From Haliangiales bacterium (GTDB lineage: Bacteria > Myxococcota_A > Polyangia > Haliangiales > Haliangiaceae): a stretch of DNA of 15,568 bases. Positions 10,211 to 10,377 of the stretch are shown here, one piece after another. A model generated the notes under the pieces. That model ran no database searches. It was not told the DNA's origin and saw nothing but the letters and a program-made list of their open reading frames with translations. Position 1 is the stretch's first letter; the number at the start of each line of letters is the position of its first letter. Location of the stretch: positions 1 through 15,568 of the forward strand of contig JBBQJJ010000189.1 in assembly GCA_038325805.1 (NCBI GenBank), given 5' to 3'. Position numbers and translations under genes: made by a program.

Positions 10211-10243
10211 ACAGAGGTGCGCGGGAGGCGACCAGACCTCTGT
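10211..10243. promoter_or_regulatory. 8-bp inverted repeat acagaggt-N17-acctctgt in the rtcB / LRR-operon divergent region; candidate enhancer (UAS) or 5'-UTR hairpin
   Basis: Perfect 8-bp arms seen directly. It lies 20-50 bp upstream of sigma-54 candidate 1 and ~130-145 bp upstream of candidate 2, and 32 nt upstream of the LRR-gene ATG on the other strand. Confidence 0.4.
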
Positions 10244-10262
10244 CGTCGAGCTCGTTCGTCCC

Positions 10263-10278
10263 TGCCACCTATCTTGCA
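10263..10278 (+). promoter_or_regulatory. Sigma-54 promoter candidate 1: TGCCAC-C-TATC-TTGCA (correct -24/-12 spacing, TTGCA perfect, but -24 GG is GC)
   Basis: Matches TGGCACG-N4-TTGCW at 14/16 positions with exact spacing. It would give a ~90-nt leader containing the AAGG SD 10 nt before the rtcB ATG. rtcB is a known sigma-54/RtcR target in E. coli. Confidence 0.4.
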
Positions 10279-10345
10279 GGATAACTCAGTATCCTCTCAG
10301 ATACAGAGCTGTATCATAACTAATAGGAACAACTACCGTCATCAT
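10279..10345 (+). other. AT-rich island (~38% GC against ~70% background) with two hairpins: ggata-actcag-tatcc (10279-10294) and gataca-gagc-tgtatc (10300-10315). Possible structured leader or small RNA, or an IHF/DNA-bending region.
   Basis: Base composition and the palindromes are seen directly. It lies between sigma-54 candidate 1 and the rtcB start codon, or between the inverted-repeat UAS and sigma-54 candidate 2. Confidence 0.35.
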
Positions 10346-10346
10346 C

Positions 10347-10362
10347 TGGTCCATGAGCTGCA
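10347..10362 (+). promoter_or_regulatory. Sigma-54 promoter candidate 2: TGGTCC-ATGAG-CTGCA (GG at -24 and GC at -12 with exact spacing)
   Basis: The conserved GG/GC dinucleotides are present. With the inverted repeat ~140 bp and the AT-rich bendable DNA ~60 bp upstream, this gives a textbook enhancer-IHF-sigma54 layout. The predicted TSS (~10373) would leave only a ~5-nt leader without an SD. Confidence 0.3.
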
Positions 10363-10377
10363 CAAGGTCCGCTCGCC

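Follow-up and report, generated by a model that had tools for sequence, protein, structure and literature searches.

Tandem TATC-N6-GATA dyads and a degenerate -24/-12 element in the likely RtcR/sigma-54 control region of rtcB from a Haliangiales bacterium

Background

Genschik et al. 1998 are said to have described in Escherichia coli (E. coli) a control region shared by the divergent rtcR gene and rtcBA operon, in which a sigma-54 promoter, an upstream activating sequence for RtcR and an integration host factor (IHF) site are combined. Here we are analyzing the corresponding region of a Haliangiales bacterium, located between rtcB and a divergently transcribed operon containing rtcR on contig JBBQJJ010000189.1; the whole analysed stretch of 15,568 nucleotides (15.5 kb) is called the window throughout. 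Judging from its anatomy, conservation and spacing, and from the co-occurrence of its sequence motif with rtcR, we consider it, with a probability of roughly 72%, an enhancer-dependent sigma-54 control region, in which RtcR would bind an array of TATC-N6-GATA dyads and activate a degenerate promoter, named candidate 2 below. The control logic of the locus is the textbook sigma-54/enhancer arrangement known for E. coli and Salmonella rtcBA, and the locus is in this respect an ordinary one.

Several described systems are close to it. PspF, the enhancer-binding protein of pspA-E, has upstream sites which also repress a divergent sigma-70 promoter. In M. xanthus the upstream sites of PexR likewise repress a divergent promoter, this protein being both an activator and a repressor, and leaderless divergent transcripts have been reported in Myxococcota (PMC12754779). 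The rsr-yrlBA-rtcBA operon of Salmonella Typhimurium serves RtcR/sigma-54-dependent RNA repair (PMC7790460, Hughes et al. 2020; PMC9879122, Kurasz/Karls laboratory), the sequence of the RtcR enhancer not being spelled out in either paper. The native rtcBA promoter of E. coli is very weak in vitro (PMC9650030, Kotta-Loizou et al. 2022).

As in E. coli, rtcR of the window diverges from rtcB, the promoter is of the -24/-12 type, and putative activator sites with GATA/TATC half-sites are located near the divergent start. The E. coli promoter reads TGGCAC-N5-TTGCA, whereas that of the window is the degenerate TGGTCC-N5-CTGCA; the distance between enhancer and promoter is 70 bp versus about 115 bp in E. 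coli, and the predicted leader about 5 nt versus about 25 nt (counted from the sequence). The IHF site of E. coli has no IHF-like equivalent here, rtcA is absent with a gene for a major vault protein (MVP)-like product present instead, and two extra genes separate the enhancer from rtcR. With the Salmonella operon the locus has in common an extra ribonucleoprotein-type gene within a presumed RtcR/sigma-54-dependent RNA-repair operon, but in the window this gene is MVP-like and lies downstream of rtcB, and no Ro60, Y RNA or tRNA-like RNA was detected. Activator sites common to a sigma-54 promoter and a divergent promoter would be shared with PspF and PexR, whereas autoregulation is here suggested by position, and the dyads lie 90 nt from the divergent start codon without overlapping it. 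Tandem enhancers of the NtrC type, as they are generally understood, similarly have, upstream of the -24/-12 element, at least two dyads facing the same side of the helix and promoting AAA+ oligomerisation; in the window the half-sites are TATC/GATA instead of TGCACC/GGTGCA and the sensor is a CARF-like instead of a receiver domain.

Conserved dyads upstream of rtcB

The gap between rtcB and the leucine-rich repeat (LRR) gene which opens the divergent operon measures 198 bp, with divergent transcription units on either side. The elements on which our reading depends are the following.

10269 to 10284, putative RtcR box 1, CTATC-TTGCAG-GATAA, perfect dyad with its centre at about -97 from the predicted transcription start
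10289 to 10304, putative RtcR box 2, GTATC-CTCTCA-GATAC, perfect dyad exactly 20 bp from box 1, centre at about -77
10311 to 10326, putative imperfect RtcR box 3, GTATC-ATAACT-AATAG, one mismatch in 8 core bases, 22 bp from box 2, centre at about -55
10347 to 10362, plus strand, candidate 2 for the sigma-54 promoter, TGGTCCATGAGCTGCA, with GG at 10348-10349 and GC at 10360-10361
10373 (+/- 2 nt), plus strand, predicted transcription start, 12 nt beyond the C of the -12 GC

For comparison we used 80 genomic loci encoding close RtcB relatives, the E. coli K-12 locus and the metagenomic contig Ga0075163_10076386 (L082), which was reached through the LRR protein; a metagenome scan for orthologues of the LRR gene yielded this one partial relative only. 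In 40 loci rtcR is transcribed away from rtcB or from whichever gene opens the rtcB operon, and motif enrichment was counted in 38 non-redundant rtcR-linked regions from Myxococcota, Acidobacteriota, Planctomycetota and Gammaproteobacteria.

The perfect TATC-N6-GATA dyad is present in 19 of the 38 rtcR-linked regions, with 0.15 expected from shuffled sequences, and among the spacings tested from N0 to N14 only N6 was enriched. At rtcB loci devoid of a nearby rtcR the perfect dyad was found in only 2 of 39. When one mismatch is allowed, the dyad occurs in 32 of 39 regions with the consensus YTATC-N6-GATAR, examples being GTTATC-TTATAG-GATAAC in L001, CTATC-AAAAAA-GATAG in L079 and CTATC-CCAACG-GATAG in L062. 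Dyad and promoter are combined in 25 rtcR-linked regions, the promoter alone is present in 7, the dyad alone in 6, and none is without both; the respective figures for the 39 loci without rtcR are 1, 1, 5 and 32. The motif accompanies, as an enhancer is expected to, both the activator gene and the target promoters across genomes. The window as a whole contains three matches with no more than one mismatch, all of them clustered at 10270-10325 and overlooked in the initial annotation; they lie within an AT-rich island (about 10270-10345) having a GC content of 0.38-0.45 against about 0.67 around it.

The spacing is conserved as well. Tandem dyads 20 bp apart, seen in the window at 10270 and 10290, are also found in L002, L009, L023, L031, L037 and L064, and in L082, L001 and L002 a counterpart of box 1 precedes the promoter TGG by 69-70 bp and an ATATC/GTATC half-site is conserved at the offset of box 3. 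In relatives the distance from the dyad centre to the promoter TGG amounts to 48-138 bp, and the centres at -97, -77 and -55 in the window fall within the approximately 50-150 bp upstream of the promoter at which enhancer sites are looked for. Reading the control regions side by side, we noticed that in most rtcR-linked cases the dyad sits beside the rtcR start, and in most genomes the dyads begin 2-50 nt from the rtcR start codon. Degenerate dyads are found in this place in E. coli, TATA-AAAGAC-GATA (one mismatch) being followed by GATA-TTTCAT-TATC, 115 bp upstream of TGGCACGACGGTTGCA; E. coli RtcR is predicted to bind TATAAAAGACGATA / TATAAAAGACGATATTTCATTATC beside rtcR.

A second tandem dyad pair of L009 (67-80 and 87-100), together with TGGCACGTTGGCTGCT, is located upstream of a Ro60/TROVE gene (open reading frame, ORF, 197-1750; vWA_Ro60 1e-13) on the far side of rtcR from rtcB, which points to two RtcR-controlled promoters in this genome. 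In Salmonella a Ro60/TROVE-type gene is under RtcR control (PMC7790460).

The initial annotation of this DNA saw in the AT-rich island a mere bend or a transcribed leader, a view which does not agree with an array of conserved dyads tracking rtcR across phyla; because of this array, the island is likely the enhancer itself, and the dyads at 10269-10326 are the likely sites of RtcR, whose binding we infer. A dyad whose half-sites are spaced by 10 bp, repeated with 20-bp phasing, agrees with the dimeric activators with a Fis-type helix-turn-helix (HTH) known from the NtrC family. The consensus may be a small new result: no paper stating the RtcR recognition sequence was found in the searched literature, and curated databases (RegPrecise, RegulonDB) may already list the motif. 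Often present in tandem 20 bp apart, YTATC-N6-GATAR constitutes a testable RtcR motif which could be used for prediction of RtcR regulons in many phyla, and which already flags the separate Ro60 gene in L009.

The rtcB promoter

Besides candidate 2, a second sigma-54 promoter had been proposed in the initial annotation.

10263 to 10278, plus strand, candidate 1, TGCCACCTATCTTGCA, TGCCAC-CTATC-TTGCA, overlapping RtcR box 1

Both candidates, as well as an inverted repeat discussed further on, were found where they had been placed, and the proposed frame of a sigma-54 promoter with an enhancer holds, rtcB being adjoined by a genuine RtcR (714 bits, GAFTGA). It is the choice between the candidates that conservation decides. 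Candidate 2 has the GG-N10-GC core, which candidate 1 lacks, having GC in place of GG at -24. The position and core bases of candidate 2 are conserved in four relatives.

Window, TGGTCC-ATGAG-CTGCA, 70 bp from dyad centre to TGG
L082, TGGTCC-GCGGG-CTGCA, 69 bp from dyad centre to TGG
L001, TGGATC-GCGCC-CTGCA, 69 bp from dyad centre to TGG
L002, TGGTTC-GCGGG-CTGCA, 70 bp from dyad centre to TGG
L003, TGGCCC-CGGCC-GTGCA, no dyad within one mismatch

All five sites stand 13-15 nt ahead of ATG (15 nt in the case of candidate 2). The GG-N10-GC core, C at position 6 and CTGCAC are conserved across the sites, the N5 spacer varies, and no alignment among the relatives is possible over the roughly 50 bp from the dyads to the promoter. 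With its position and GG/GC cores retained in the nearest relatives, candidate 2 is the best-supported site and quite probably the sigma-54 promoter of rtcB, as one of the two proposals had it.

Several observations speak against this reading. Within the window a single site, candidate 1, comes within one mismatch of TGGCAC-N5-TTGCW; if three mismatches are tolerated, 34 sites qualify against 48 expected by chance, and candidate 2 is among these. On a weight matrix made from 34 orthologous rtc promoters, with training sites scoring 9-19 bits, candidates 1 and 2 obtain 7.1 and 5.1 bits and rank 3rd and 14th in the window, respectively. In candidate 2 the consensus C and A after GG are replaced by T and C, and the agreement of the window with L082 at the promoter may in part be due simply to their relatedness, as homology starts there. 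A dyad with at most one mismatch is missing from L003 and some other loci, and the IHF consensus (WATCAANNNNTTR, at most two mismatches) has no match in 10180-10377, so there is none between the dyads and the promoter. The rpoN gene is not within the window. Leaders as short as 5 nt are unusual for sigma-54 transcripts, and the GGT conserved 9-11 nt ahead of ATG could be a weak Shine-Dalgarno sequence, implying an upstream start and a longer transcript.

Neither candidate is convincing from sequence alone, as both score below the training range. The sites of L001 and L002 are equally weak by the weight matrix (5.9 and 4.9 bits, respectively), and since the matrix cannot decide, candidate 2 was chosen because of its positional conservation. 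Such a promoter would be intrinsically weak, which fits the report on the weak native E. coli rtcBA promoter. For annotation the region is a trap: the site closest to the sigma-54 consensus anywhere in the window overlaps the likely enhancer by chance, and the favoured promoter is degenerate.

The comparison with L082, whose RtcB is 99% identical to that of the window, delimits the conserved part. DNA homology (91.6%) starts at 10346, i.e. at the edge of the -24 element, and extends into the vault-like gene, while upstream of 10346 only the dyads and the dyad-promoter distance are kept. The homology boundary at the promoter appears to resemble a recombination breakpoint, with a hypervariable TIGR02996/LRR side. 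On its divergent side L082 encodes a 149-aa TIGR02996 protein, 61% identical over just 100 residues, and the 85-nt spacer is missing.

Transcription start and proposed mechanism

The native rtcBA promoter of E. coli was primed with ApC at -1/+1 (PMC9650030), and because this primer, placed on the E. coli sequence, sets +1 at 12 nt past the C of the -12 GC, the same rule was applied here. It predicts a leader of about 5 nt (UCGCC) ahead of the ATG at 10378 in the window, of 5 nt in L082, L001 and L002, of 3 nt in L003 and of 2 nt in L019. By this analogy the rtcB mRNA is predicted to be effectively leaderless. A near-leaderless rtcB had been foreseen in the event that candidate 2 is used, and it follows from the conserved position of that site. 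Leaderless transcripts (at most 5 nt) were proposed for another myxobacterial activator gene (PMC12754779). For the window, a near-leaderless sigma-54 transcript is predicted for an rtcB-vault-protein operon.

In the mechanism that we propose, RtcR dimers would bind two or three YTATC-N6-GATAR dyads (10269-10326), about two helical turns apart, by means of the C-terminal HTH, and sigma-54 RNA polymerase would form a closed complex at TGGTCC-N5-CTGCA (10347-10362), the weak -24/-12 element. Upon sensing of a signal by the CARF-like domain, the AAA+ ring of RtcR would contact sigma-54 by DNA looping. The signal in Salmonella is tRNA fragments with 2',3'-cyclic phosphate ends, which is established for the family. 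Transcription would then begin near 10373 and give an rtcB-MVP-like mRNA with a leader of about 5 nt. As the dyads would stand in the path or in the promoter region of the LRR-orf127-rtcR operon, RtcR occupancy would probably also damp its own synthesis.

The divergent operon

A divergent LRR-rtcR operon was recognized in the initial annotation, and rtcR does lie behind the LRR gene; what had been missed is a 127-aa ORF (orf127) between the two.

8902 to 10179, minus strand, LRR gene (TIGR02996 plus leucine-rich repeats), 425 aa, first gene of the divergent operon
8522 to 8905, minus strand, orf127, 127 aa, between the LRR gene and rtcR, with a signal in the third-position GC (GC3) frame analysis
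6954 to 8525, minus strand, rtcR, 523 aa, with a CARF-like RtcR domain, an AAA+ sigma-54 interaction domain and a C-terminal HTH
10313 to 10342, minus strand, sigma-70-like site, -35 ATGACG (10342-10337), 18 nt, -10 TATGAT (10318-10313)

The identity of RtcR is given by Pfam RtcR (3.7e-72), Sigma54_activat (8.2e-49) and the NCBIfam equivalog NF038308 at 714 bits (cut-off 650). Its GAFTGA (residues 263-268) and Walker A (at 213) are both intact, and the cognate AAA+ activator with a GAFTGA loop that a sigma-54 promoter calls for is present at the locus. The LRR protein was assigned by NCBIfam TIGR02996 (3.7e-9 at residues 5-46), Pfam LRR families and GC3 frame analysis. The GC3 signal moves into the orf127 frame at about 8955-8522. 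No family model matched orf127. At its N-terminus (MTIDWRAHHAVITEPVSADALQAADPREAWIALQGEL) it is similar to the LRR protein's TIGR02996 domain.

At both ends orf127 overlaps its neighbours, the LRR gene and rtcR, by an ATGA start/stop sequence, and these overlaps indicate co-transcription of LRR, orf127 and rtcR. In the window and in L082 one or more TIGR02996-family genes are inserted between the dyads and rtcR, and 90 nt separate the dyads of the window from the LRR start codon with which the divergent operon opens. The sigma-70-like site (one found versus 0.0 expected in shuffles) is a weak candidate for the LRR-orf127-rtcR promoter, which would read through the RtcR boxes; it is not obviously conserved in the relatives. 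The terminator scan gave no match.

The arrangement makes autoregulation of rtcR plausible on grounds of position, and nothing on it was found in the searched literature. In most genomes RtcR bound near the rtcR start would cover the rtcR promoter or early transcribed region. The broadest form of the hypothesis is a tentative one, which we hold with less than even confidence: phased tandem dyads would be the RtcR enhancer, retained in E. coli as well as in Myxococcota, Acidobacteriota and Planctomycetota, and in the present myxobacterial lineage would drive a leaderless, sigma-54-dependent rtcB-vault operon without rtcA and gate the divergent operon, RtcR acting as activator and autorepressor from one array.

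Alternative explanations

Apart from the dyads, the spacer contains a further symmetric element.

10211 to 10243, 8-bp inverted repeat, ACAGAGGT (10211-10218), 17 nt, ACCTCTGT (10236-10243)

It is located in a GC-rich, lineage-specific segment of about 85 nt (10180-10264), extending from the LRR start codon to dyad 1. A lineage-specific role apart from RtcR activation, as the operator of another regulator or as a hairpin in the 5' untranslated region of the LRR-orf127-rtcR operon, is improbable, although of the alternatives it fares best, and it is compatible with RtcR acting through the dyads. Its place 32-64 nt upstream of the LRR start codon would suit such a function, and the transcribed repeat could fold into a hairpin (-18.3 kcal/mol for the plus and -16.7 kcal/mol for the minus strand), but these energies are within the range of shuffled sequences (z -1.2 and -0.7, respectively), the frequency of such repeats is at chance level and no relative carries it.

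Other repeats have one copy in the 5'-terminal part of the LRR coding sequence and the other in the spacer with the 8-bp repeat, namely a 9-bp perfect inverted repeat (10141-10149 / 10242-10250; CTCGACGAC / GTCGTCGAG) and a 21-nt direct repeat, 71% identical (10147-10167 / 10205-10225). They could be a trace of the spacer origin, or chance. The direct repeat D1 and the inverted repeats I2 and I3 (about 10141-10250), being without conservation, were treated as chance.

A different question is whether the dyads belong to RtcR at all. They could be bound by another protein, such as a repressor or a nucleoid protein, or be part of a divergent sigma-70 promoter, with RtcR binding elsewhere or acting from solution. 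In favour of this, the usual distance to the divergent start codon, 2-50 nt, is promoter or operator territory, the -10 of the minus-strand sigma-70-like site overlaps box 3, and the searched literature provided no published RtcR site for comparison. We nevertheless regard it as unlikely, as the motif follows rtcR across phyla and is almost missing at rtcB loci without rtcR, recurs with a sigma-54 promoter before a Ro60 gene which has no adjacent divergent rtcR start, and in the window and L082 stays by the rtcB promoter even though rtcR is no longer adjacent. The dyad symmetry, 10-bp half-site distance and 20-bp phasing also argue for a dimeric Fis-type HTH activator, in line with what is established for the NtrC family.

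The initial annotation assigned the part of the RtcR enhancer, at about -146, to the 8-bp inverted repeat, with the AT-rich island as an intrinsic or IHF bend and candidate 2 as the promoter. The repeat is indeed a perfect dyad at a distance typical of enhancers, and just 4-7% of dinucleotide shuffles of the intergenic region contain an 8-bp repeat of this kind; in the real window, however, there are 34 perfect 8-bp inverted repeats with a loop of 3-30 nt, that is 0.43 per 198 nt, which makes it statistically ordinary. In L082 just 6 nt lie between the dyad and the start of the homologous TIGR02996 gene, and the segment of about 85 nt with the inverted repeat is absent in spite of the near-identical RtcB. 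Nothing similar was found in the 38 other rtcR-linked regions, so that together with L082 the repeat is absent from 39. The motif that does track rtcR lies in the AT-rich island instead, and no IHF consensus accompanies it. Unconserved upstream of rtcB orthologues, a point on which the annotation itself had staked the site, and of chance-level frequency, the inverted repeat was rejected as an RtcR site, and we give this layout very little credit.

Least credible is transcription from candidate 1, with a start near 10290 and the AT-rich island as an 88-nt, possibly structured or regulatory leader: it would offer the best consensus match in the window and a normal rtcB leader with AAGG 10 nt ahead of ATG, but its -24 is GC where GG is present in 34/34 orthologous promoters, its halves TGCCAC and TTGCA have no counterpart in L082, L001 and L002, TTGCA being the unconserved N6 spacer of box 1, it would overlap an enhancer which in relatives lies 48-138 bp upstream of the promoter, and the would-be leader (10262-10377) folds no better than shuffles (z = +0.64) and contains no Rfam or tRNA-like element. 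Candidate 1 was accordingly rejected as a chance resemblance, and candidate 2 retained as the favoured promoter.

Genes of the window

Downstream of the control region two genes follow in the same direction.

10378 to 11598, plus strand, rtcB, 406 aa, Pfam RtcB 6.3e-130
11624 to 14215, plus strand, MVP-like gene, 863 aa, Pfam MVP_shoulder 4.9e-22 and Vault_3 2.9e-10

The rtcB start codon at 10378 is judged secure, based on alignment of the N-terminal MTNYQLL with E. coli MNYELL and on the in-frame TGA at 10354-10356. The MVP-like gene begins 25 nt past rtcB and is probably co-transcribed with it, and its synteny is kept in L001 (88% identical), L002 (77%) and L082. It occupies the place of rtcA downstream of rtcB. 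A tblastn search with E. coli RtcA gave no match in the window, L001, L002 and L003, and matches in 40 other loci; of the components of an rtcBA-type operon, the window has rtcB with a divergent rtcR and lacks the rtcA cyclase gene. Neither the Rfam scan (E up to 1) nor ARAGORN, both run on the whole window, revealed a Y RNA, tRNA-like RNA or other known RNA, and no vault RNA or Ro60 gene was detected in the window.

Read by eye, six other loci (L006, L013, L026, L043, L057 and L072) seemingly have tRNA-like sequences just upstream of rtcB, for example ggttcgagtcc and gtagctcagtgggtagagc. These stretches are reminiscent of the Y RNA/tRNA-like elements of Salmonella and of the mutant tRNA of Pelobacter carbinolicus (PMC3543383).

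Three more reading frames of the window were noted.

14216 to 15421, minus strand, 401-aa ORF without a Pfam match
2228 to 4705, plus strand, 825-aa DUF885 protein
4735 to 6945, plus strand, 736-aa ABC1/UbiB-type atypical kinase with a long N-terminal extension

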